From a virus (lineage: Duplodnaviria; Heunggongvirae; Uroviricota; Caudoviricetes): a stretch of 11,433 bases of DNA. A program made the translations under genes and the position numbers. The notes under the pieces are model-generated. The model did not search any database. It had not been told where the DNA came from and saw only the letters and a program-made list of their open reading frames with translations. Below are positions 1 through 11,201 of this stretch, piece by piece. Numbering within the stretch: the stretch's first letter is position 1; the number at the start of each line of letters is the position of its first letter. The stretch is from the IMG/VR virus record IMGVR_UViG_3300042891_002161. One strand, given 5' to 3'.

Positions 1-697
1 TAAAAGAACTTAATAATTGTGTTGAGTTTAGGTTTTTATTCCAAACTTTTATAGTTGATATTCTACCATTGAAAAATTCAGTAGTATTTGTAACACCAAT
101 GGTTAAGTTACTAAAAGAAGGAACACTATGTGTTACACCGGGTGTATCAGTCCCTATTGATTGACCATTCAAATATATTGTTCTGTTAGTACCGTCATAA
201 GTAGCGGCTAAATGATACCAATAATCAACAGATGGTGTGGTACCAGGAATAGCCTCTAAATCAGTTCCCCACCAGTAATTTTTAAAACCACCACCAGATT
301 GTCTTAAAGCATTTACTTCATAATTATTTGAGTAACTACCCCATCCAATTATACCACCGTCTTCAATAACATCATAAGTATTAGCTTGAATCCAAGATTC
401 TATTGTATAATGAGAATTCATTAATGGTATAGCTGTTCCTGAAATTAAAGAACCAAAACTATCTGTTCCATTAAACTCAAATGAGCCTTCAAACCTGGTT
501 AAATTATTATATGTAGAACTAAAAGTCATATTTGATAATGATATATCATTATTAAGACTTGTTAAATCATACCAAGTACTACCTGTTCCAGTATAAGAAA
601 GGACATTACCAGCATCCAAGTTTAGTATTAAACTTGGAGCTGATCCTCCCGAAAAAAGAGATGTTGGTCCTAAATGTGCCGATAATTTACTTATCAT
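1..697 (-). CDS. LamG/concanavalin A-like domain protein, putative virion fibre-associated lectin-like protein (partial, runs off the left edge; not in the supplied ORF track)
   Basis: Manual translation from ATG at 697 is open to the window edge (232 codons): MISKLSAHLGPTSLFSGGSAPSLILNLDAGNVLSYTGTGSTWYDLT...FEFNGTDSF...YTIESWIQ...WYHLAATYDGTNRNIYLNGQSIG...LTIG...FFNGRISTIKVWNKNL. These are LamG_3-type motifs shared with the three domains of the 7754..9814 protein. The start lies 16 nt after the stop of the 1119-aa gene. Confidence 0.9.
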   Translation of the reverse strand, partial: MISKLSAHLGPTSLFSGGSAPSLILNLDAGNVLSYTGTGSTWYDLTSLNNDISLSNMTFSSTYNNLTRFEGSFEFNGTDSFGSLISGTAIPLMNSHYTIESWIQANTYDVIEDGGIIGWGSYSNNYEVNALRQSGGGFKNYWWGTDLEAIPGTTPSVDYWYHLAATYDGTNRTIYLNGQSIGTDTPGVTHSVPSFSNLTIGVTNTTEFFNGRISTIKVWNKNLNSTQLLSSF

Positions 698-713
698 TTA
701 TTTTAATTATTTT

Positions 714-3700
714 TTAAGCAAATGTTCCTGCTTGTCCTAATACTTGACTTAATGTACCTGTGGTATCATAAACAAACATTAATCCAATTGTATCAACTTG
801 GTTTGCTGTACCACTTGGTGCATTTCCACCATTCCATTTAATAGTTACTACACTACCGCCATTTATAGTTAAATCAGTAATCATATAAGGAGTAGCTCCT
901 TGATTTAAGATTAATGTATAAGTAATAACAGAGTTAGCATAAGAAGGATCAGGGAAGTTAGTGAAATCAACTTGAAAATCATTACTTAATGATGATAAGT
1001 ATTTAATACTACCATCTAAGAAACTAGCTGTAACACTTGAAGTACCTACTGTGATATCTTGAGCGGCTTCTACAGTTTGTTTTAAGTATGTTGTAGCGTT
1101 TAAGAATACTGAGTTATCTCTATCACAAACATTTAAGCACTGACCACCTAATATAACTGAGTTACAAGAACAACACATATAGTTATCACATCCACCTATG
1201 ATAGATGAATAGTCAGAGTCACAACTAATACAGTTATCGCGACCACCAACTATAGATGAATAATCTGAATAACTAATTCTATTACAACATCCACCAACTA
1301 TAGATGAATAATTTGAACAACAGATTGTATTATCACAACCACCAATTATGGAAGAATTATCAGAACAACACATTCTATTATCACCACCACCAATTATAGA
1401 AGATTCATTAGCACAACACATTCTACCATCACAACCTCCTATGATAGAACCATTTCTTGTACAACACATACAGTTATCATCACCACCTAAAATAGATGAG
1501 TCAATAGAGTAACCACAGATGCTGTTACAACATCCACCAATAATAGATGAGTTACAAGAACAACAAGTTACGATATTACAATTTCCACCAATAATAGATG
1601 AGTCATTAGATCCGAAAGAAGAAGTAAGTCCTCCATAGTATCCACCACAGATTCTGTTACAATTTCCACCTATAATAGATGATTGACAAGAATACCCATC
1701 AACTATATTAGAAAATCCACCAATAATAGATGAATCACAAGAGTAATTATTAATAAAATTATTTTGACCACCTATAATACTTGATTCATGCGAGTTACTA
1801 ACTGTGCCAAAATCTCCTCCAATTATTGAAGCCGAATTTGATGAAGTCATACTATTGTAAGAACCACCAACAACTGAACCATTACTAGAGTTATAAATAC
1901 TATTCATAAATCCAGTCATTGACTCAGTAGCTCCAAGTACAATACCACCAAAATTTGGTACTAAACTATCAACATTTCTATATCTGATTCTACCATTAGC
2001 ATCAGCAGTAACGAGTCTAGTATCAGTAGGCTCATTTTGTAAAGTATCAATTTTAAGACGATTTACTAAAACTGTATCATCTTCATTATTAAGTGACATA
2101 TTTGAACCACCAATAATAACAGATCTTTGTGATTCACAAATACAGTTATCATAACCACCAATTATATTAGAATTATTTGAACAACAAACACAGTTATTAG
2201 AACCACCAATAATAGTTGAGTTTTCTGAATCACAACAAATTTGATTATCACAACCACCAACAATAGAAGAATGACAAGAATAATAGTTTATTCCATTATT
2301 ATAACCTCCAATAATAGAAGATAAACAAGAGTCACTACAAATACAGTTATCATATCCACCTAAGATAATAGAACCTTCATTATCATTTATAATACGATTT
2401 CCACAACCACCAATAATAGCAGATTCACACGAATTATCACAAATACAATTTCTACAACCACCTACAATTACAGAGTTTTCATTACCATAAGATAGTAAGT
2501 TAGATGAGCCACCAACAATAGCTGAATAGTAATTATTTTCACCACATATTGTATTATTCTGACCAACAAATATACCTGAAGTGTCAGCACAACAAGCGAT
2601 TGTGTTACAATGACCACCTATAATTGATGCACCTAATTCAACACAACATAAACAGTTACGATGTCCACCGATAATAGTACCTTCATCGGTACATGACATT
2701 ATGTTACAACATCCACCAATAATAGTAGATGAGTAAGAAGCAGTCATACTATTATAACAACCACCAATTATATTTGAAGTTTGTGAGTTACTAATAGTAT
2801 TACAACAAGCATAGAATGAACCACCTCCACCTAATGTAGAAGCTTCTCTATAGTTAATATTACCAAAAGCATCAGATACTAACACTTTATCATTTGAGTT
2901 ATTACAAGATAAATTATTTATTTTTAAGTTAGGAACTAAAACAGTGTTACTTTGAGTAGCTAATGTTAAACCAGTACCACCTAAGATAACTGAATTTTCA
3001 GAATCAATAATACTATTTGTTAAACCACCAATGATTGAGTTACCACCAAGGCCTATGGAAATAATACCAAAGTAACCACTTGCTGTAGGACCACCATCAC
3101 TTGTGATAATTGAATTAGATTCACCACCAATAATTGATGATTTAGTTGAATAGCAATCTATAGTATTAAAACATCCACCTATAATTCCAGAATTATCAGA
3201 ACGACAACCTAAAGTATTATCTGTTCCTCCTAAAATAACTGAAAATCCTCCTTCATTAGCACCACATCCACATATTGTATTACAACAACCACCAATTATA
3301 GCAGAGTGTTGCGTTTCATCAATTAAATTGCATTCTCCACTAATTATAGAAGAATAATCAGACTCATTATAGATTTTGTTACATCTACCACCAACAATTG
3401 CGGAGTGATCCGAACAACAAATCGTGTTACGATACCCACCTATAATAGAGTTTAATCCAGAACCATCATATCCAACAACTTTATTACAACATCCACCAAT
3501 AATAGATGAGTTATTTGTATCACATACTATTATGTTATAACAACCACCAACAATAGCAGAATTACAAGATCCATAACTAGAATCACTATCATAACCACAA
3601 ATACAGTTATTAGAACCACCAACAATAGTTGAATTACAAGAGTTATCTTTTACATTATTATTACAACCACCAATTATAGCTGATTGATGAGAATCATCAC

Positions 3701-4073
3701 AAATGTCGTTAGAATGACCACCGATTATTGAAGAGTAATCCGAGGCACAACAAATACGGTTATCATAACCACCTAAAATAACAGCTCCTTCATTTGAGCA
3801 AATGGTATTATCACAACCACCAATAATGGCTGATTGACAAGAATCAGAACTGATTATACTATTAGGTGAAGCTAATAGGTTACTAGTATTATCATATGTA
3901 AAACTTTCTGATGAAGTTAGACCAGTACCTGTTCCTACAGGAATTTGATTATTTGGTTGATTAGATTGGTCTTCTAGTGCTAATGATTCAAGGTAAGTGA
4001 AGTTTCCATCCATTTCAGCGATAGTTAATCTTCTATTGACTTCCCCTCTTAATATTAAACTTTGTGTTGGCAT
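714..4073 (-). CDS. 1119-aa Cys-rich repeat protein, putative trimeric beta-helix/beta-roll virion fibre
   Basis: About 45 copies of a 15-17-aa unit SxxS(S/A)I(I/V)GGxxNxI in three blocks. The N-terminus LILRGEVNRRLTIAEMDGNFTYL resembles a motif I recall from phage fibre N-termini. The C-terminal ~130 aa are homologous to the C-terminus of the 461-aa protein. The ORF is certain; the function is inferred. Confidence 0.75.
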   Translation of the reverse strand: MPTQSLILRGEVNRRLTIAEMDGNFTYLESLALEDQSNQPNNQIPVGTGTGLTSSESFTYDNTSNLLASPNSIISSDSCQSAIIGGCDNTICSNEGAVILGGYDNRICCASDYSSIIGGHSNDICDDSHQSAIIGGCNNNVKDNSCNSTIVGGSNNCICGYDSDSSYGSCNSAIVGGCYNIIVCDTNNSSIIGGCCNKVVGYDGSGLNSIIGGYRNTICCSDHSAIVGGRCNKIYNESDYSSIISGECNLIDETQHSAIIGGCCNTICGCGANEGGFSVILGGTDNTLGCRSDNSGIIGGCFNTIDCYSTKSSIIGGESNSIITSDGGPTASGYFGIISIGLGGNSIIGGLTNSIIDSENSVILGGTGLTLATQSNTVLVPNLKINNLSCNNSNDKVLVSDAFGNINYREASTLGGGGSFYACCNTISNSQTSNIIGGCYNSMTASYSSTIIGGCCNIMSCTDEGTIIGGHRNCLCCVELGASIIGGHCNTIACCADTSGIFVGQNNTICGENNYYSAIVGGSSNLLSYGNENSVIVGGCRNCICDNSCESAIIGGCGNRIINDNEGSIILGGYDNCICSDSCLSSIIGGYNNGINYYSCHSSIVGGCDNQICCDSENSTIIGGSNNCVCCSNNSNIIGGYDNCICESQRSVIIGGSNMSLNNEDDTVLVNRLKIDTLQNEPTDTRLVTADANGRIRYRNVDSLVPNFGGIVLGATESMTGFMNSIYNSSNGSVVGGSYNSMTSSNSASIIGGDFGTVSNSHESSIIGGQNNFINNYSCDSSIIGGFSNIVDGYSCQSSIIGGNCNRICGGYYGGLTSSFGSNDSSIIGGNCNIVTCCSCNSSIIGGCCNSICGYSIDSSILGGDDNCMCCTRNGSIIGGCDGRMCCANESSIIGGGDNRMCCSDNSSIIGGCDNTICCSNYSSIVGGCCNRISYSDYSSIVGGRDNCISCDSDYSSIIGGCDNYMCCSCNSVILGGQCLNVCDRDNSVFLNATTYLKQTVEAAQDITVGTSSVTASFLDGSIKYLSSLSNDFQVDFTNFPDPSYANSVITYTLILNQGATPYMITDLTINGGSVVTIKWNGGNAPSGTANQVDTIGLMFVYDTTGTLSQVLGQAGTFA
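1116..3842 (-). repeat. Protein-level tandem repeat array (SxxSSIIGGxxNxI), three blocks of about 16, 14 and 15 units
   Basis: Counted from the translation. On the + strand it appears as recurrent ccaccaat(a/t)at motifs about every 45-51 nt. The DNA copies are diverged apart from short identities such as ccaccaactatagatgaataat. Confidence 0.9.
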
Positions 4074-4175: not shown

Positions 4176-4760
4176 ATGAATTTAACTAAGCACAATTTCA
4201 AAACAACGAAAGAAAACCGTGAGTCTATAAAAAATCAAAAGTCATGTACAATTTGGATGTCTGGATTATCAGGTTCTGGTAAGTCTACATTAGCTAATTT
4301 AGTTGAAGAAAAACTAATTAGTTTAGGATATCACACTTATATTTTAGACGGTGATAATACAAGAATGGGTCTTAATAAAGACTTAGGCTTTTCAGAAGAA
4401 GCCAGAATTGAAAACATTAGAAGAGTGTCAGAGGTTTGTAAACTTATGAATGATGCTGGTCTTATTGTTATTTGTTCATTTATTTCCCCATTTGAAAAGA
4501 ATAGAGAACAAGCAAAAGAAATTATTGGTGATAACTTCTTTGAAGTTTTTGTAGATGCTGATTTACAAACTTGCGAAGAAAGAGATCCAAAAGGTCTTTA
4601 TAAAAAAGCAAGATCTGGTGAAATCAAAGAATTCACTGGAATCTCATCTCCATTTGAAATGCCAAGTAAAGGCATTATGTTAAAAAATAATACAGAAGAA
4701 GATTTAGAATCTAACGTAAATTTTCTTACTGATTTAATAGTAAAAAATAATAACAAATAA
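4176..4760 (+). CDS. cysC: Adenylyl-sulfate (APS) kinase
   Basis: P-loop WMSGLSGSGKST, LDGDNTRMGLNKDLGFSEEARIENIRRV, SFISPF and CEERDPKGLYKKARSGEIKEFTGISSPFE are all canonical CysC motifs. Confidence 0.97.
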   Translation: MNLTKHNFKTTKENRESIKNQKSCTIWMSGLSGSGKSTLANLVEEKLISLGYHTYILDGDNTRMGLNKDLGFSEEARIENIRRVSEVCKLMNDAGLIVICSFISPFEKNREQAKEIIGDNFFEVFVDADLQTCEERDPKGLYKKARSGEIKEFTGISSPFEMPSKGIMLKNNTEEDLESNVNFLTDLIVKNNNK

Positions 4761-4761
4761 T

Positions 4762-5220
4762 ATGTGGTCAAAAGTAAATCACGGTGGTGAACCCACTAAG
4801 AACCCAGATAAAAAGTATGCTATCTTTGTTGGTAGATATCAACCTTATCACTATGGACATATTGAATTAATTCAACAAAAATTGGATGCAGGTGTTCCTG
4901 CTTTAGTTATGGTTAGAGATATCGCTCCTGACGAAAAGAATCCATTTACAACTGAACAAACAGTAGAAATGATTGAAAAATATCATAATGCTAAAGGCGA
5001 TGATGTAAAAGTAATGATTATCCCAGATATTGAATCTGTTAACTACGGAAGAGGTGTTGGTTATGAAATTAATGAATTTACACCAACTAGTGAAATCGCT
5101 TTTATTTCAGCTACAAAAATTAGAGAATCTATCAAAAACGGTGATGATTCTTGGAGAACAATGGTTCATGAATCTATACAAGAAGATGTAATAAAAAATC
5201 TTATGGAGGCAAATGTCTAA
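4762..5220 (+). CDS. Small HxGH-superfamily (cytidylyltransferase-like) nucleotidyltransferase; candidate minimal ATP sulfurylase
   Basis: GRYQPYHYGH (HxGH), KNPFT and C-terminal ISATKIR (SxTxxR). It is translationally coupled to cysC (TAA-T-ATG). The fold assignment is solid; the substrate is inferred from context. Confidence 0.75.
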   Translation: MWSKVNHGGEPTKNPDKKYAIFVGRYQPYHYGHIELIQQKLDAGVPALVMVRDIAPDEKNPFTTEQTVEMIEKYHNAKGDDVKVMIIPDIESVNYGRGVGYEINEFTPTSEIAFISATKIRESIKNGDDSWRTMVHESIQEDVIKNLMEANV

Positions 5221-5647
5221 TACAGAAAAAGTCTATCAAGTAAGATATAATACACAGTCTACCAATGATTCTAACCGCTGGAGATTACTTTGTGATGGTC
5301 AAGAAATATTAGTTGCTAATATTGTTATCAATTCGCAAACTTATACAACTAAAGATTATATTGAAGGAGTTGGTGATAAATGGCACGTTACTTGTCGTGG
5401 CGAACTAACAATTGAAAACGGAACAGCTTATATTAACTTTAAGAAAGATAATGCTATTGCTCGTCACTTAGCTAAAACAATCACTTGGAGAATTGTAGGA
5501 TCAATTGATACTATGTTAGTTAGTTGGTTAATAACAGGAAATCTAAAAATGGGATTGGCTATTGGTGGTGTTGAAATTTTGACTAAAATGGTACTTTACT
5601 TTTTTCACGAAAGAGCCTGGTACAAATGGGGAAAACTTAGTAGATAA
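5213..5647 (+). CDS. DUF2061-family membrane protein fused to an unknown ~80-aa soluble N-terminal domain
   Basis: C-terminal RHLAKTITWRIVGSIDTMLVSWLITG...EILTKMVLYFFHERAW matches the DUF2061 pattern (KxxxWR...YYxHERxW). It overlaps the upstream gene by 8 nt. Confidence 0.8.
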   Translation: MSNTEKVYQVRYNTQSTNDSNRWRLLCDGQEILVANIVINSQTYTTKDYIEGVGDKWHVTCRGELTIENGTAYINFKKDNAIARHLAKTITWRIVGSIDTMLVSWLITGNLKMGLAIGGVEILTKMVLYFFHERAWYKWGKLSR

Positions 5648-5682
5648 TAAAAAAACCTCTCAAAATTTGAGAGGTTTTTTTA
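5648..5682. terminator. Bidirectional intrinsic terminator between convergent operons
   Basis: TAAAAAAACCTCTC-AAAATTT-GAGAGGTTTTTTTA has a perfect inverted repeat and a 7-nt U tract on both strands. It lies between the stops at 5647 and 5689. Confidence 0.9.
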
Positions 5683-5688
5683 TGTTCT

Positions 5689-6486
5689 TTATTTCTTTTT
5701 CCAAAACTCAGTATCGTGAAGTTTCTTATACCATTCTCTACCGATAACATCAATAGCATCTGATTTAGCAGGTAGTAATCCACCTTTTTTAATTTCATGT
5801 AAATCATTACCCCAACCATATCCAGCATCATTCTCTCTAATAGTTTGTTCAATATTACTAAAATCATGTTGATAATATTCTTCACCAATAAACTCATAAA
5901 GTTTCTTAAACCAAAAATCAGGATTTGAACTCCATTGTTCATATGGAAAGAATAAAATTCTATCACCTAAACCTCTTTGAATCGTATCTAAGATAGAAAC
6001 ATAAGGTCTTCCTATAACTCCTTCATCAGAAGTCCAAACACCAATTCTACCATCAATAGTTTTCATTTTAGGATTAGAAAACTCACCGTGAATCTCACCA
6101 TCAGCTCTATTCTTTCTGAATAACTTTTCAAAAGAAGAACAAATATCTTCTAAGTTTCTAACACAAGCAATAATTCTAGCGGGTTGATTAGTTGCTTTTT
6201 CAATAAACTCAATATGAGTTGACCAACCTCTGTTTTTATCAAAGATAACTTCTTTATCAGTTTTGTGATAGTTTTGCATAATGGCTCTAATAACAGCCCA
6301 TTTGTCTTGACCTTCTTCATAAACTTTATGACCTTCTAATTTATTCCAGTTATCTCTAACTTGTAAAAGAAAGTCTAATAAAGATGAAGTTGCTGTTGTA
6401 GCAAACTTTGGATTCTGTAACAGAATATTTGTTAATAAAGTTGATCCACTTCTTGGTAGACCACCTATATAGTTGATTTTTCTCAT
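5689..6486 (-). CDS. PAPS-dependent sulfotransferase (Sulfotransfer_3-like)
   Basis: 5'-PSB loop YIGGLPRSGSTLL, 3'-PB motif IIACVRNLEDICSSF and a later PYE motif. Its start overlaps the upstream stop as ATGA. Confidence 0.9.
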   Translation of the reverse strand: MRKINYIGGLPRSGSTLLTNILLQNPKFATTATSSLLDFLLQVRDNWNKLEGHKVYEEGQDKWAVIRAIMQNYHKTDKEVIFDKNRGWSTHIEFIEKATNQPARIIACVRNLEDICSSFEKLFRKNRADGEIHGEFSNPKMKTIDGRIGVWTSDEGVIGRPYVSILDTIQRGLGDRILFFPYEQWSSNPDFWFKKLYEFIGEEYYQHDFSNIEQTIRENDAGYGWGNDLHEIKKGGLLPAKSDAIDVIGREWYKKLHDTEFWKKK

Positions 6487-7364
6487 AGTTCTAATAGTTT
6501 GTTTATTATTTCATTTGAATCAAATATCTTCAATTTATCATAAGGAAATTGAACTGGATTACCACCAATATCAAAATCATCTAAATAAGAAGAATGATAA
6601 GTATCAAATACAGGATTTTCTGTTGGTTTAACATTAGTATGTATGTCATAACCTAAAATCTCAGGTTTGTTACCAACCCAACAAACAACTGACTTTAATC
6701 CAAAAGCCGCCGCAGAGTGTTGAGAGAATGAATCAATTAATAATCTCTTTTTAGAGAAAAGAACTGATGCTAGTACCTCTCTTGTGTCTAATGATATTCT
6801 ATGACATCCTTGAATTAATGGTTGTCCTTCATAACCTAATTGATAGATATGATAATCATTTTTGAAATAATTAACAACATCTACCGCATTTTGAATTGGA
6901 ATATCTCTATACCAAGAATAAGGTCTTGATTTAGCACCACCTCCACCACCATTAGTATGTAGTAAGAAAATAGGTTTAGTAACACCTTGTGTCATTTTAT
7001 TTTTAACACCTTCTAATTCTAAAGGTGAGAAATAAAGTTTAGGAGTTTCTTTATTGTATTTAGCACCAACTAAATCACACCAAACTTGAACTAAGTGTTT
7101 TTTATTTAGAATATAATCTTCAGCGTGATAAGGATCAACTCTAAAGATTTTTACATCTTGATCTTTAATGAAATTTTTGTAAAAGTTGGCAACCTGACCC
7201 ATAGGAAATATTTGATGAACATTTGGATTATTAAACCAAACTTGAGGCCAAGCAGAAACTACAATAATATTTCTTTTTGGATCTGTTTTTTTGAGTGAAT
7301 CAATAACTGCCGTAGCTAAGATATTTTTACCGATTCCACCTTCAATGTGAAATATTGAATACAT
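6483..7364 (-). CDS. GT-B fold glycosyltransferase, GT9 (heptosyltransferase)-like
   Basis: N-terminal FHIEGGIGKNILATAVIDSLKKTDPKRNIIVV...NNPNV and C-terminal LLIDSFSQHSAAAFGLKSVVCW parallel the GT9 motifs GGIGD...P...nP and DSgxxHlAaA.g.p.v. Confidence 0.7.
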   Translation of the reverse strand: MYSIFHIEGGIGKNILATAVIDSLKKTDPKRNIIVVSAWPQVWFNNPNVHQIFPMGQVANFYKNFIKDQDVKIFRVDPYHAEDYILNKKHLVQVWCDLVGAKYNKETPKLYFSPLELEGVKNKMTQGVTKPIFLLHTNGGGGGAKSRPYSWYRDIPIQNAVDVVNYFKNDYHIYQLGYEGQPLIQGCHRISLDTREVLASVLFSKKRLLIDSFSQHSAAAFGLKSVVCWVGNKPEILGYDIHTNVKPTENPVFDTYHSSYLDDFDIGGNPVQFPYDKLKIFDSNEIINKLLEL

Positions 7365-7413: not shown

Positions 7414-7440
7414 AAAAAACCCAACATTTAGTTGGGTTTT
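7414..7440 (-). terminator. Intrinsic terminator closing the right-hand structural operon
   Basis: Minus strand reads AAAACCCAAC-TAAAT-GTTGGGTTTT followed by TTATTTT, 22 nt after the stop of the 77-aa gene. Confidence 0.85.
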
Positions 7441-7462
7441 CAATAGTTTCTTTCAAAGAATA

Positions 7463-7696
7463 TTATGAGTATAACTCAGTCAATCTTGCTTCAACATTTG
7501 AATCAGTCCATTGACCTATAGCGTCATAAGCAGCGCCTTCCCATAATACAACAGGCTCGTCAAGTTCTTCAACAAATGCTCTAACTACTTTCTTCTTCGG
7601 TAAGTCCACAATTCGTGCTACTGTTAGTGTCGTTACTGTTTTACTTTTTTCTTCTTGTAAAACTACTTTCTTTGGATTTTGTAGATTAATTTGCAT
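7463..7696 (-). CDS. Small hypothetical protein (77 aa), possibly fibre-associated
   Basis: Clean ATG-TAA ORF with natural composition (LWEGAAYDAIGQWTD), co-oriented with the structural genes and followed by a terminator. Confidence 0.8.
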   Translation of the reverse strand: MQINLQNPKKVVLQEEKSKTVTTLTVARIVDLPKKKVVRAFVEELDEPVVLWEGAAYDAIGQWTDSNVEARLTELYS

Positions 7697-7753: not shown

Positions 7754-9814
7754 TTATATACCGTAAATATCTCTGTTTGCTTCAAAGTTTTTAGAAACAT
7801 CTGAAGCACTTAAAGCCGAGTTATAGAATCTTACTATACCCATTTTACCATTAAACCATTGTCCATGTCCACCAATATTATTATCAAATGAACCTATAGA
7901 TAAATCATGTGTTGTATTTTTAATACTAGTAAAAGAATGACTAGTTGGTGTTCCTTGACTTATCCCATTTACATAAAGTGCAATTGAGTTTGACGCAACA
8001 TTAGTAAACACACCAACAATTTGATACCAAGTGTTTGTTGTTACGGTATATGTTGGTGAATTTAATGTTGTAGTTCCACCATTACCGACTTCCATATAGG
8101 TCACTCCGGATGAAGTAGTTCTAATACCATATCCCCAGTCCGAACTATTGGGCCCATCTGTTTTACTAAGCACACATCTACTACTACCAGCAATTACCGA
8201 ATAGTTAATCCAAACTTCAACACTGAAATCGCCAGTTGTTGGTTCTAATAAAGCACTATCAGATGATGTTATTGTTGAACTCAATCCATTAAAAGTAAAG
8301 TATGGATTTGCAAATGTGACATTTGACATTGCACCATTTAATGAATTTCCGGTTAAATCAGTAACAGTTGTTCCAGAACTTGGATAACTTAAATAACTAG
8401 CCGGATTAAAGTGAAGTTTTAAATTTGTAGTTACAAAATTACCATTTTTATAAACATTCTTTAAGGCATCATAGTTTTGTTTAATTTCATCCAGTGTTAA
8501 TTTTTTATTATATAACATCATATTTCCAACATCTCCAAAAGGTTGAGAAGATCCAAGATTGTTACCTAAACCATCATGTAAAGTTCCACCAGATCCGTAA
8601 GAAATTGTGGCACCTACCTGTGTATCGTTTATATAGAATGTTTGTGATGAATTATCTCCGACAACAGAATATTGAACCCAAACATCACCCAAAGATGAAA
8701 TATCATATCCTGAACTTTGGGACACTGTGTCCCAATATCCTAATTTGTTTGCGTCAGGATGTGCTGAATCAGGAATTGTTATTGGAGTATAACGAGGTGA
8801 TTTTGTATAAAGTAATGTTCTAAATGATGCAGAACTACTGATAATTCTTGCCCAAGAAACATATGTATATCCAGATGTTGATAATGTAGGCCCTGTACCA
8901 TCCACTACAATTCTTTTAGAACCAGTAGTACAATCAAAAGATTTGAAACCATATATTGTAGATGATGTAGCACCCGATGTTAAAGAGTGTGTATATCCAT
9001 TACCACTTAAATCATTAACTGAACCACCTGAGAAACTTGCTGGATCATTAGCATCAATCCAAATAGACATACTACCAGTATAAATATAATTAGATTTAGT
9101 AAAATCATAATTATTTAATATTTGTTGTTGACTAAGAGCTGTATTATAAACATGAAAAGCACCTAACTTCATTTTAGCTGGTGTGCCATCACCTAAACTT
9201 GTTGAATCACTAGCACCTATAGCATAATGTAAACTAGAAGGAGTAGCCCTTATAAGATTTTTAGTACCTGCTAATTGACCATTTACATAACCTCTCATTA
9301 TATTACCATCATAAGTAAGACCAACATAATACCAATTATAAAAAGGTGTTGGAATTGAAGAATTTGAACTTGTTAAACCAGCAGGTAATGTCCATAATCC
9401 AAATTTTAAATTCCCTCCAACTATTTCAATTTGAGAATCATGCCACAATATGTTTGATGTAGTCTGACCAAGCTCAGAAACAATAACACCATTATCCGTT
9501 GGATATATCCAAGTAAAATGTGAAATAATATTTGATGTATTAGTTGGTGATAATTTGGAACTAAGTGATGTGTTTGTTGATAAATAGTCATCAATGCCAT
9601 CAAAATTTATGTAACCATTTATAGAATATGTTGGGCCACTATATAATGTTGCATCACTATTACTAACTAAGTCGGTAACACTATTAGTACCTGAATATGA
9701 ATCTCTATCAGATATTTCATATCTTAAAATTAAACCATCTGTTGTAAATCCACCAACTGGTATTCTAAATAATGGTGATAAAGGCCCTGAGAATGATGAT
9801 AATCTACTTAGCAT
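7754..9814 (-). CDS. Protein with three tandem LamG/ConA-like domains (686 aa from the ATG), putative virion lectin-like/receptor-binding protein
   Basis: Three units each begin with an L..x.D/E/N...S(Y/F)...DL motif and end in G....YN..L....I..N(Y/F). WYYVGLTYDG and WYQIVGVF strands are present. The ORF track starts at TTG 9823 inside the upstream gene; the ATG at 9814 (TAA-T-ATG junction) is more likely and aligns with the start of the 697 protein. Confidence 0.88.
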   Translation of the reverse strand: MLSRLSSFSGPLSPLFRIPVGGFTTDGLILRYEISDRDSYSGTNSVTDLVSNSDATLYSGPTYSINGYINFDGIDDYLSTNTSLSSKLSPTNTSNIISHFTWIYPTDNGVIVSELGQTTSNILWHDSQIEIVGGNLKFGLWTLPAGLTSSNSSIPTPFYNWYYVGLTYDGNIMRGYVNGQLAGTKNLIRATPSSLHYAIGASDSTSLGDGTPAKMKLGAFHVYNTALSQQQILNNYDFTKSNYIYTGSMSIWIDANDPASFSGGSVNDLSGNGYTHSLTSGATSSTIYGFKSFDCTTGSKRIVVDGTGPTLSTSGYTYVSWARIISSSASFRTLLYTKSPRYTPITIPDSAHPDANKLGYWDTVSQSSGYDISSLGDVWVQYSVVGDNSSQTFYINDTQVGATISYGSGGTLHDGLGNNLGSSQPFGDVGNMMLYNKKLTLDEIKQNYDALKNVYKNGNFVTTNLKLHFNPASYLSYPSSGTTVTDLTGNSLNGAMSNVTFANPYFTFNGLSSTITSSDSALLEPTTGDFSVEVWINYSVIAGSSRCVLSKTDGPNSSDWGYGIRTTSSGVTYMEVGNGGTTTLNSPTYTVTTNTWYQIVGVFTNVASNSIALYVNGISQGTPTSHSFTSIKNTTHDLSIGSFDNNIGGHGQWFNGKMGIVRFYNSALSASDVSKNFEANRDIYGI

Positions 9815-9815
9815 A

Positions 9816-11201
9816 TTAATCAAAAGTGTTTATTTGTCCTAAGACTTGAGCCCAGACACCACCACTTCTAATAAATGTAAATCCAACTATATCAACTTGA
9901 TTTGGTGTTCCGGAAGCAGTACCACCAGCCCATCTAATTTGTTGACTAGATCCATCTATTTGAACAGCAGTTGGTATATAAGCAGTTGAACTCTGGCTCA
10001 TAACAATTGTAGTTGTTATAGCTCTATTATTTGTTATTGGAATATTTGTGAAATTAGCAGTATAATTATTAGTAACAGATGAATGATACCAATTAGATCC
10101 TGTTGAGAAATCATAAACAACAGTTGATGCCGTAGCACCAGGTGTTGAGTTAATAACTTCTGTTACTTCTTGTAAAACTGTTAATCCACTGAATGAAGCA
10201 GTACCATCAACAGTAAGTGTTTCTGATAAAGATAAACTTGTAGTAGGAGTTGTTCCGGATGTACCAGAAGTACCCGAATCACCAGTTAATCCTGAAGTAC
10301 CACTTGATCCAGAAGTGCCAGAATCACCAGTTAAACCACTTGATCCACTAGAACCAGAAGAACCACTTGATCCGCTAGAACCAGAAGAACCACTTGATCC
10401 GCTAGAACCAGAAGAACCTGAAGAGCCACTTGTTCCTGAAGAGCCAGAAGTATTATAATTACCACTTACATTAATATACCAGAAGCTGTAAGTGCTTCCG
10501 ATAGATTGTGAGTAATCAACAACAATTGACATTGATCCAGTATTTCTATCATATGAATCAATTTGTCCAATCATAGTACCATACTCTTCTGTATAATCAT
10601 CAACAACATATAAATTTGGTAATTCACTATACATTAATACTGTTTGACCTGATGTATATCCTAGATTTTCTTGTGTATTAAAATCAACAACATAACCTAC
10701 ACTAGGAACAACAATAGTTGTACTTGAAGTAGCTGAATAATTATCTGACCTACCTGAAGTACCAGATGAACCAGATGTTCCACTTGATCCAGATGTTCCA
10801 CTTGATCCAGATGTTCCACTTGATCCACTTGGTCCAGAAGCACCAATAGAGCCAGATGTTCCACTAGAACCAGAAGTTCCTGATGAGCTAGTTGTACTAA
10901 TTACATAGTCAATATAATTTTTAATTTGAATATCAATCAGTGTAGGCGTTTTTGTTAAAAGTGTATCAATTTGTGATTGAAACAAACCTAAAGCTATTTT
11001 AGCCTCATTTTGAGAGGAAAATGGAATAGATATTATTTTACCACTTTTAAAAGCAATATCTAAAATATTGTTTGAAACCCTTGTAGTACCTATGGAAAAT
11101 GGGTTTATTGTATAAACAATCATACCATTTTTATCTAATACTTGTACATTGGTATCAGATGATGTTAATGGTCTCAAAAATGTATTATAGCTAAAAATCA
11201 T
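9816..11201 (-). CDS. 461-aa collagen-like (Gly-Ser/Thr-Ser) fibre protein
   Basis: N-terminal ~100-aa domain, 15 Gly-X-Y triplets, a ~100-aa globular insert (DNYSATSSTT...GQIDSYDRNTGSMSIVVD...WYINVSG), 22 Gly-X-Y triplets, then a C-terminal domain homologous to that of the 1119-aa protein. Confidence 0.8.
   Translation of the reverse strand: MIFSYNTFLRPLTSSDTNVQVLDKNGMIVYTINPFSIGTTRVSNNILDIAFKSGKIISIPFSSQNEAKIALGLFQSQIDTLLTKTPTLIDIQIKNYIDYVISTTSSSGTSGSSGTSGSIGASGPSGSSGTSGSSGTSGSSGTSGSSGTSGRSDNYSATSSTTIVVPSVGYVVDFNTQENLGYTSGQTVLMYSELPNLYVVDDYTEEYGTMIGQIDSYDRNTGSMSIVVDYSQSIGSTYSFWYINVSGNYNTSGSSGTSGSSGSSGSSGSSGSSGSSGSSGSSGSSGSSGLTGDSGTSGSSGTSGLTGDSGTSGTSGTTPTTSLSLSETLTVDGTASFSGLTVLQEVTEVINSTPGATASTVVYDFSTGSNWYHSSVTNNYTANFTNIPITNNRAITTTIVMSQSSTAYIPTAVQIDGSSQQIRWAGGTASGTPNQVDIVGFTFIRSGGVWAQVLGQINTFD
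10248..10445 (-). repeat. 22 in-frame Gly-X-Y triplets, including a 27-bp unit x3 (GGTTCTTCTGGTTCTAG(C/T)GGATCAAGT, 10338-10418)
   Basis: Read directly from the sequence. Confidence 0.92.
10746..10880 (-). repeat. 15 in-frame Gly-X-Y triplets, including an exact 18-bp unit x3 (GGATCAAGTGGAACATCT, 10773-10826)
   Basis: Read directly from the sequence. Confidence 0.92.

Follow-up and report, generated by a model that had tools for sequence, protein, structure and literature searches.

The stretch of DNA studied here, 11,433 nucleotides in length and referred to below as the window, comes from the IMG/VR virus record IMGVR_UViG_3300042891_002161 (Caudoviricetes). It contains a five-gene cassette at positions 4176–7364 that is predicted to make the sulfate donor 3′-phosphoadenosine 5′-phosphosulfate (PAPS) and to use it for sulfation. 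Ten sizeable open reading frames (ORFs) were found in the window. They include all five cassette ORFs, contiguous as described in an earlier interpretation that was made from the DNA letters and ORF translations alone (the sequence-only reading). The cassette lies between four fibre-like genes on the minus strand (fib232, rep1119, LamG689 and coll461) and is arranged as two convergent units. Unit 1 (4176–5647, plus strand) consists of cysC, NT152 and a DUF2061 gene, and unit 2 (7364–5689, minus strand) consists of GT293 and ST265. The junctions within the units can be read directly from the sequence: cysC and NT152 are joined as TAA-T-ATG, NT152 and the DUF2061 gene overlap by 8 nt, and GT293 and ST265 are coupled by an ATGA overlap, which had also been described before. 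A pattern match places a hairpin with a 17-bp stem and T runs on both sides between the units (5647–5683, no strand), which is probably a bidirectional terminator that separates them. A further candidate terminator-like hairpin (7415–7441, minus strand, pattern match) is predicted 5′ of GT293, so that GT293-ST265 would be a separate two-gene unit.

The first gene of unit 1, cysC (4176–4760, plus strand), almost certainly encodes an APS kinase that phosphorylates adenosine 5′-phosphosulfate (APS) to PAPS. Its product matches PF01583 (E 2.7e-65) and exceeds the curated cut-offs of NF003013 (243 bits against 163) and TIGR00455 (238 against 139), and its translation carries the APS-kinase motifs GLSGSGKST, LDGDN and ENIRR. 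The second gene, NT152 (4762–5220, plus strand), encodes a 152-aa HxGH nucleotidyltransferase (PF01467, E 3.4e-8) that is a candidate non-canonical ATP sulfurylase, converting sulfate to APS. The third (5213–5647, plus strand) encodes a protein that consists of a phage-specific N-terminal domain and one DUF2061 hairpin, the latter matching the full PF09834 profile at residues 86–136 (85.5 bits against 23.1).

Unit 2 combines a predicted sulfotransferase with a predicted glycosyltransferase. ST265 (5689–6486, minus strand) falls within Sulfotransfer_3 (PF13469, 55.8 bits against 27), with further matches to PF00685 and phrog_27463 (E 9.5e-41), and is by these family assignments a PAPS-dependent sulfotransferase. 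The PAPS-binding loop LPRxGSTLL and the pair R110...S118, which corresponds to the R...S motif for binding the 3′-phosphate, are invariant in a family alignment that reaches 30% identity. In a search against the PDB, the family profile matched the tyrosylprotein sulfotransferases TPST1 (E 1e-10) and TPST2 (3e-7), whereas heparan 3-O-sulfotransferase reached E ~0.3. The TPST match covers a C-terminal segment and the N-terminal region with the PRSGST loop, which we read as the 5′-phosphosulfate-binding loop.

GT293 (6483–7364, minus strand) is predicted to be a GT-B glycosyltransferase with a GT9 (heptosyltransferase-like) fold, as judged from an AlphaFold2 model (pLDDT 95) and Foldseek. Its best structural matches in the PDB are all GT9 enzymes, namely Veillonella GT9 (3tov, 1.7e-14), WaaF (1psw, 4e-11), WaaC (5e-9) and TibC (1.7e-8, TM ~0.66). 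The earlier label of this protein as GT9-like is thus right by fold, though GT293 itself has no Pfam match at E<0.01, PF01075 included. At the sequence level, the family profile finds WaaF weakly (E 0.02), the relatives P0347 and P0388 just pass PF01075 (22.9 and 22.4 bits against 22), and P0373 has a precomputed PF01075 match. The IDSFSQHSAAAFG stretch of GT293 (D-S-x-x-x-H-x-A-A-A), in which D211, S212 and H216 are invariant or nearly so across the family, may be read as the GT9 donor-site motif. The conserved N-terminal residues are G9 and K13, which stand in place of what we take to be the G-D motif of the WaaC N-terminus. The family comprises 707 clusters at 50% identity, and fusions with GT25 or FkbM methyltransferase domains occur among the relatives. 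In a simple hydropathy scan of 19-residue segments, none of the cassette proteins showed a strong transmembrane window. GT293 and ST265 are without strongly hydrophobic segments and look soluble, and we do not call the DUF2061 protein a membrane protein on the basis of the same scan. ST265 stays paired with a GT9-like gene down to ~30% identity of the glycosyltransferase. Together with the ATGA coupling, this persistent pairing argues for joint action on one product. A complex prediction for GT293 and ST265 gave no verdict (score 0.00) and is not evidence either way.

The genes of the cassette recur together in other phages. NT152 is found in 48 viral loci, with DUF2061 alongside in 47 of them and an APS-kinase gene directly upstream in 34 by tblastn. 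Three loci that were silent in tblastn were inspected and have a short (~150 aa) or fused APS-kinase ORF in the same position; the short and fused kinase forms of loci L022, L015 and L028 pass PF01583. Kinase and transferase form single polypeptides (APS_kinase-NT) in L015 and L042. In L022-25, L036-37, L040-41 and L045, the order glycosyltransferase, sulfotransferase, kinase, NT152 and DUF2061 is colinear on one strand, and in another phage group a gene of the Sulfotransfer_2 family stands beside the PAPS unit instead. The fusions, the reshuffled order and the swapped-in sulfotransferases of another family indicate that these genes form one functional unit.

From its gene content, this unit is very probably there for sulfation, not for sulfur assimilation. 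None of 28 related viral records, including ones rated 95–100% complete, yielded a PAPS or APS reductase, and a recognisable sulfotransferase is present in 18 of the 28 (Sulfotransfer_3 in 13, Sulfotransfer_2 in 5 more). The sulfotransferase lies in or beside the module wherever coordinates were compared, and the ten records without a recognisable one are 13–78% complete. Sat was found in none of four related viral records tested and CysQ in none of five. Within the window, profile searches of the ORFs gave no match to a domain of PAPS reductase, sulfite reductase or cysteine synthase. The sequence-only reading had noted the same absence and had concluded from it that the genes are meant for sulfation; the counts for reductases and sulfotransferases across related phages support this well.

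Further support comes from DUF2061. The phage DUF2061 hairpin is 58–77% identical to hairpins of Flavobacteriia, and the Flavobacteriaceae Rasiella and Christiangramia have an operon of cysQ-DUF2061-cysC-cysD-cysN-sulfotransferase-wzx-GT2. A DUF2061 gene is also part of a Mesorhizobium nod locus with nodH, nodP and nodQ. The presence of DUF2061 inside cellular PAPS and sulfotransferase operons is an independent tie of the unit to sulfation, and by this gene context the DUF2061 protein is a conserved accessory of PAPS modules. No DUF2061-enzyme fusions were found, only tandem double-DUF2061 proteins, and a protein atlas gave no lead for DUF2061 or for s77, a small ORF 5′ of GT293 that is described below. 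A related phage (L018:7040-7999) encodes a 319-aa fusion of the APS kinase with a hydrolase domain of the HAD family at the C-terminus. The hydrolase domain could be a phosphatase of 3′-phosphoadenosine 5′-phosphate (PAP) or a pyrophosphatase that pulls the pathway forward.

Viral cysC genes are usually interpreted differently. In large phages they are counted as auxiliary metabolic genes (AMGs) of the sulfur cycle (PMC13172472), with the phage enzyme boosting assimilatory sulfate reduction for cysteine and methionine during infection. For the cassette described here, we consider this explanation highly improbable. Apart from the missing reductases, cysC shares an operon with NT152 and DUF2061 and is a neighbour of sulfotransferases, and the Bacteroidota genomes with cysC-NT152 are also without a strong PAPS reductase match.

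Next, we focused on NT152, as the claim that PAPS synthesis is self-contained depends on this protein. Its translation has the motifs GRYQPYHYGH and ISATKIR, and GRYQPYHxGH, NPFT, SxNxGRGVGY and (S)ATxxR are invariant in the family. PF01467 is its sole Pfam match; the Sat family PF01747 is unmatched. By both sequence and fold its nearest relatives are phosphopantetheine adenylyltransferase (PPAT) and archaeal nicotinamide mononucleotide (NMN) adenylyltransferase (NMNAT), and the matches to solved NMNATs span residues ~17–114 only. NT152 is far under the NMNAT cut-offs (TIGR01527, 48 bits against 181; NF002243, 52 against 127). Compared by eye with an archaeal NMNAT sequence, NT152 has the SxNxGRGVGY loop in place of the NMN-binding segment after the IPD strand, and this region is shorter. 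The scores and the apparent loss of the NMN-binding segment led us to reject NMNAT as its identity. We also rejected a role as a sugar-1-phosphate adenylyltransferase that feeds the GT9-like enzyme, as 34 viral and 80 bacterial loci with NT152 have no GT293 nearby. NT152 tracks cysC and DUF2061 rather than GT293, which argues that it is not the sugar activator of GT293.

Bacterial homologues show what NT152 may do instead. Homologues with 64–77% identity to NT152 occur at 80 bacterial loci, which are spread over Bacteroidota, Thermodesulfobacteriota, Dadabacteria, Nitrospirota and Spirochaetia, and cysC is the immediate neighbour in 23 of these loci, mostly labelled Bacteroidetes or Flavobacteriales. 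We searched for sulfate-activation genes in the genomes behind 32 of the 80 loci. CysC was present in all 32, Sat in two and CysD in none, and 25 had a CysH-sized PAPS reductase. As these genomes contain the second and third steps of the pathway and no known first step, there is no other candidate for the activation step. In the phage operon, NT152 occupies the slot that cysDN has in the flavobacterial operon. An exact chemical parallel exists in PPAT and dephospho-CoA kinase, which in turn carry out an adenylylation and a 3′-phosphorylation. On this comparative evidence, NT152 is probably a non-canonical ATP sulfurylase outside the Sat family. The claim of self-contained PAPS synthesis is therefore conditional: genome and operon comparisons favour it, and it is likely only if NT152 is indeed an ATP sulfurylase.

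Some observations count against this assignment. The structural model of NT152 is moderate (pLDDT 73, with the distinctive loop below 50), the 50 best fold matches of this model do not include Sat, and two Nitrospiraceae genomes (L068; G023, G033) have NT152 together with a fused Sat-CysC, the sole exceptions among the genomes searched. NT152 could therefore be another adenylyltransferase, NMNAT-like or acting on a cofactor; the host ATP sulfurylase would then provide APS, and cysC alone would boost PAPS. This would agree with best matches to NMNAT and PPAT rather than Sat, with the co-occurrence of NT152 and Sat in the two Nitrospiraceae, and with the position of NT152 alone among housekeeping genes in many Thermodesulfobacteriota and Dadabacteria. 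We find it doubtful, as the NMNAT cut-offs are missed by a wide margin, the NMN-binding segment appears to be absent in the by-eye comparison, NT152 is fused or adjacent to APS kinase in phages and Bacteroidota, and a known ATP sulfurylase is missing from 30 of the 32 genomes that encode both NT152 and CysC.

Two further gene arrangements involving NT152-like proteins were observed. A marine Bacteroidetes single-cell genome (L061:5025-9076) has a row of cysC, a 132-aa nucleotidyltransferase, NT152, metK and ahcY, which links the cysC-NT152 pair to the methyl and sulfur cycle. The phrog_10255 'kinase' of 56-kb siphophages of Xylella, Xanthomonas and Stenotrophomonas (H18-H29) is a P-loop kinase fused to an NT152-like transferase, and one siphophage record annotates this fusion as adenylylsulfate kinase.

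What the cassette may sulfate is suggested by the genes that surround unit 2. A gene for a repeat protein similar to rep1119 adjoins the GT-ST pair in every clade examined (L002-L008, L010, L011, L022 type, L146), as the identity of the glycosyltransferase falls from 84% to 38%. In pelagiphage HTVC111P, a distant relative of GT293 begins directly at the tail-fibre stop codon. A 385-kb relative has two separate paralogous loci of a rep-like gene, glycosyltransferase and sulfotransferase, but only a single PAPS unit was detected there. The second of these loci (L146, G001:C1:8000-27999) is ordered as a 924-aa rep-like protein, a 1305-aa protein, a GT293 paralogue and an ST265 paralogue, followed on the opposite strand by a true Pfam GT9, a 544-aa ORF and a 222-aa ORF.

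We propose the following mechanism. NT152 would adenylylate sulfate to APS, and CysC would convert APS to PAPS. GT293 and ST265, translated together, would consume this PAPS on a macromolecular acceptor in the infected cell, for which the protein with the 16–17-residue repeats is the leading candidate and the Ser/Thr-rich collagen-like protein the next. Progeny virions would thus acquire an anionic sulfated coat, as sulfated sugars or as sulfotyrosine, with the host supplying the nucleotide sugar and removing PAP. We put the probability of this whole chain, from PAPS supply through use by GT293-ST265 to a fibre acceptor, at roughly 0.45. That the acceptor is a neighbouring fibre protein falls, taken by itself, just short of even odds. 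The sequence-only reading had named the 461-aa collagen-like protein, coll461, as the acceptor. From synteny we infer that rep1119 is the best candidate and coll461 the second; if a fibre is the acceptor, the 1119-aa repeat protein is the gene most consistently linked to the pair. A more general version, in which giant phages of fresh and marine waters make PAPS with NT152, as a hitherto overlooked minimal ATP sulfurylase, CysC and DUF2061 and sulfate their adsorption fibres by GT9-like/TPST-like pairs that are each dedicated to particular fibres, is conceivable and on the unlikely side.

Several points weigh against a fibre as the acceptor. Synteny among related phages is partly inherited and is therefore not independent evidence. 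The recurrent co-occurrence of cysC, sulfotransferase, glycosyltransferase and fibre genes in phages, which the sequence-only reading had suggested as a check, was indeed found, with the restriction that some phages have their PAPS unit among GT10 and FkbM genes and away from any fibre-like neighbour. Cellular counterparts of the PAPS unit lie in capsule- and O-antigen-type loci, which fits modification of the host surface. In this case the cassette would sulfate, and perhaps glycosylate, the lipopolysaccharide (LPS) core, O-antigen or capsule of the host during infection. This could block superinfection, prevent progeny from being trapped on debris or keep the envelope intact, and the fibre genes would adjoin the cassette simply because the variable fibre region gathers accessory genes. 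The textbook acceptor of GT9 enzymes is the LPS inner core, and WaaC and WaaF are among the best fold matches of GT293. LPS-type gene clusters of cyanomyoviruses have long been read as host-envelope modification, the polysaccharide loci that contain cellular DUF2061-cysC modules also encode a Wzx flippase, a GT2 and sulfotransferases, and the phage loci without fibre neighbours are 'glycan islands'. We consider host-surface modification a serious but less likely alternative. The GT-ST pair travels with the rep-like gene in several diverged lineages and in two paralogous loci of one genome, an association for which a general modifier of the envelope would have no need. Neither a flippase nor a lipid-carrier transferase nor any membrane-anchored enzyme is part of the cassette, both GT293 and ST265 appear soluble, and the nearest solved relatives of ST265 are protein sulfotransferases. 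Within GT9, TibC glycosylates serines of a repeat adhesin that is encoded beside it.

The position of the ST265 profile close to TPST1/2 and far from carbohydrate sulfotransferases also bears on the fibre proposal. It speaks against the 'glycan' part, as sulfate may go onto protein directly, and it means that GT293 and ST265 may act independently, the nearest solved relatives of ST265 being protein-tyrosine and not carbohydrate sulfotransferases. ST265 would then sulfate tyrosines of a phage or host protein in the manner of TPST or RaxST, separately from GT293, an alternative that overlaps with sulfation of a fibre. Acidic residues flanking a tyrosine mark TPST targets. coll461 contains such an acidic tyrosine motif, L-Y-x-x-D-D-Y-x-E-E/D, in its central globular domain at residues ~198–206 (window 10590–10615), which resembles sites of tyrosine sulfation. 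Within its DDYxE core, D53 and Y54 are invariant, and homologues with as little as 36% identity retain the acidic flanks. rep1119 contains four S-D-Y-S-S-I sites. A bacterial precedent exists in RaxST, which depends on a dedicated PAPS supply (PMC4646787). However, the closest solved relative does not fix specificity in a family as broad as Sulfotransfer_3, tyrosines in acidic context show no striking enrichment in rep1119 or the other fibres, and the ATGA coupling and the pairing with a GT9-like gene in diverged relatives argue for joint action. Direct tyrosine sulfation, with GT293 acting separately, seems quite unlikely.

The fibre-like neighbours themselves are diverse. rep1119 (714–4073, minus strand) encodes an 1119-aa protein made up of 44 repeats of 16–17 residues with the consensus x-S-S-I-I-G-G-C-D-N-x-I-C-C-S-S, which includes two conserved serines per repeat. 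It had no family match and no PDB match by sequence. Its cysteine content is 8%, with C-C pairs at fixed repeat positions, which is unusual for a protein assembled in the cytoplasm. This suggests metal binding, or disulfide bonding after release. coll461 (9816–11201, minus strand; PF01391) is a proline-poor collagen-like protein with (G-S/T-S)n tracts and 35% Ser+Thr. rep1119 and coll461 share a C-terminal domain of ~130 aa (window 714–1115 and 9816–10220) with ~40% identity across homologues, whereas their bodies are unrelated; this domain could be a tip or an adaptor. LamG689 (7754–9823, minus strand) has three LamG_3 (ConA-like) domains (PF13385, E 7e-38) and matches phrog_8510, 'virion structural protein' (E 2e-37), and is probably a virion structural or fibre protein. 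fib232 (2–697, minus strand), another LamG_3 protein (PF13385, E 6e-18; phrog_8510, E 9e-12), runs off the start of the window at its 3′ end. With LamG_3/phrog_8510, collagen-like and 44-repeat neighbours, the placement of the cassette among virion fibre genes by the sequence-only reading is a reasonable inference. For the large ORFs on either side of the cassette in the 385-kb relative, PHROG searches mostly gave no match, and no baseplate or tail hallmark could be placed beside it.

The small ORF s77 (7463–7696, 77 aa) is conserved in many phages (35–91% identity) and has no family match. It was rejected as a member or acceptor of the cassette, as 25 of 30 viral s77 loci have no cassette gene within 7 kb, including one that is 81% identical. 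A complete 185-kb phage has s77 and is without GT293 and the rep-like gene.

The source element is a freshwater jumbo phage or megaphage. The same cassette is found on IMG/VR contigs of 165–464 kb with 62–94% protein identity, and members of the cassette family also occur on public contigs of up to ~617 kb. A T4-type Gp23 capsid gene, and no capsid gene of nucleocytoplasmic large DNA viruses, was found in related contigs of 385 kb and 464 kb. Completeness ratings of 95% and 98% are given for two IMG/VR contigs with this capsid gene content. A megablast search gave no DNA-level match of isolate phages to the whole window. At least 14 lake and freshwater metagenome runs (8 studies) contain 49–99% of the words sampled from the cassette stretch. 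IMG/VR labels four related contigs of 50–276 kb (G002, G003, G040, G041) as 'provirus', which is odd for jumbo T4-like phages and may be a trimming artefact. RNA libraries from three freshwater studies contain contigs with 0–1 mismatch to NT152, DUF2061, ST265 and GT293, and one of these contigs spans the GT293-ST265 junction. Since the matches are contigs and DNA carry-over is possible, they are a weak hint that the cassette is expressed in freshwater communities. The high RNA-library depth over the collagen repeats reflects low-complexity cross-matching and is uninformative, as are the parts of the window that were not covered.

We know of no sulfated virion protein described for any phage. 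If the acceptor is a fibre, this would be the first sulfated phage virion. A sulfated fibre would have a strong negative charge and might mimic sulfated polysaccharides of the host, with consequences for adsorption, host range and the stability of particles in natural waters. Viral cysC genes may serve sulfation of surfaces or virions rather than sulfur nutrition, and ecological conclusions drawn from AMG counts would then mislead for this gene class. If fibres are indeed sulfated, many genes now listed as 'cysC sulfur AMGs' in viromes would have their part in tailoring virions or surfaces. The module also offers a testable function for phage sulfotransferases, for DUF2061 and for the very abundant 152-aa transferase, which may be a third kind of ATP sulfurylase.

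Parts of this arrangement resemble known systems. Like the phage cassette, the flavobacterial sulfated-polysaccharide loci and the Mesorhizobium nod locus have a dedicated PAPS supply with DUF2061 beside sulfotransferases and glycosyltransferases. Unlike these loci, the phage has no cysDN or cysQ. It has NT152 instead of cysDN, its cassette is free of flippase and polymerase genes and is flanked by fibre genes, and its DUF2061 protein is a single hairpin with a new N-terminal domain. In the PAPS unit, NT152 has the superfamily fold of HxGH nucleotidylyltransferases in common with Sat and the bifunctional PAPS synthases (Sat-CysC, PAPSS), and the kinase-transferase gene order and the natural fusions in phages mirror PAPSS. 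However, NT152 has about one third of the size of Sat, does not match PF01747 and is nearest to NMNAT and PPAT.

The GT9 fold of GT293 is common to the O-heptosyltransferases TibC and Aah (PDB 4rap, 4rb4), which act on TibA and AIDA-I. Both enzymes are soluble, and each glycosylates serines of a long repeat adhesin that its neighbouring gene encodes; GT293 beside rep1119 has this same layout. GT293 is only ~13% identical to TibC, is 90–100 residues shorter, has no Pfam GT9 match and, unlike TibC, is paired with a sulfotransferase. Phage-encoded glycosyltransferases glycosylate mycobacteriophage virions, and giant viruses glycosylate their own fibrils. In both cases viral enzymes act on the virus's own structural proteins in the cytoplasm, as we propose here, and to our knowledge no sulfation or PAPS pathway has been described for either. 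The glycosylation of mycobacteriophage virions by phage glycosyltransferases is echoed in a published study (PMC11256854).

Among sulfotransferases, TPST1/2 and RaxST are the best solved-structure matches of the ST265 family. The similarity is low, and ST265 differs in being coupled to a glycosyltransferase. Cyanophages S-SKS1, S-SRM01 and S-SCSM1 and OM43 phages encode sulfotransferases of phrog_27463 that are 27–34% identical to ST265; these are described as isolated genes, the role of which 'remains unclear' (PMC10580990), whereas ST265 is part of a five-gene module with its own predicted PAPS supply. No paper connecting cysC, PAPS and sulfotransferases in phages turned up in our literature search. 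Phage glycan gene clusters, mycobacteriophage virion glycosylation and isolated phage sulfotransferases are already known. What is distinctive here is the combination of a dedicated, non-canonical PAPS supply with a recurrent GT9-like/TPST-like pair beside fibre genes.

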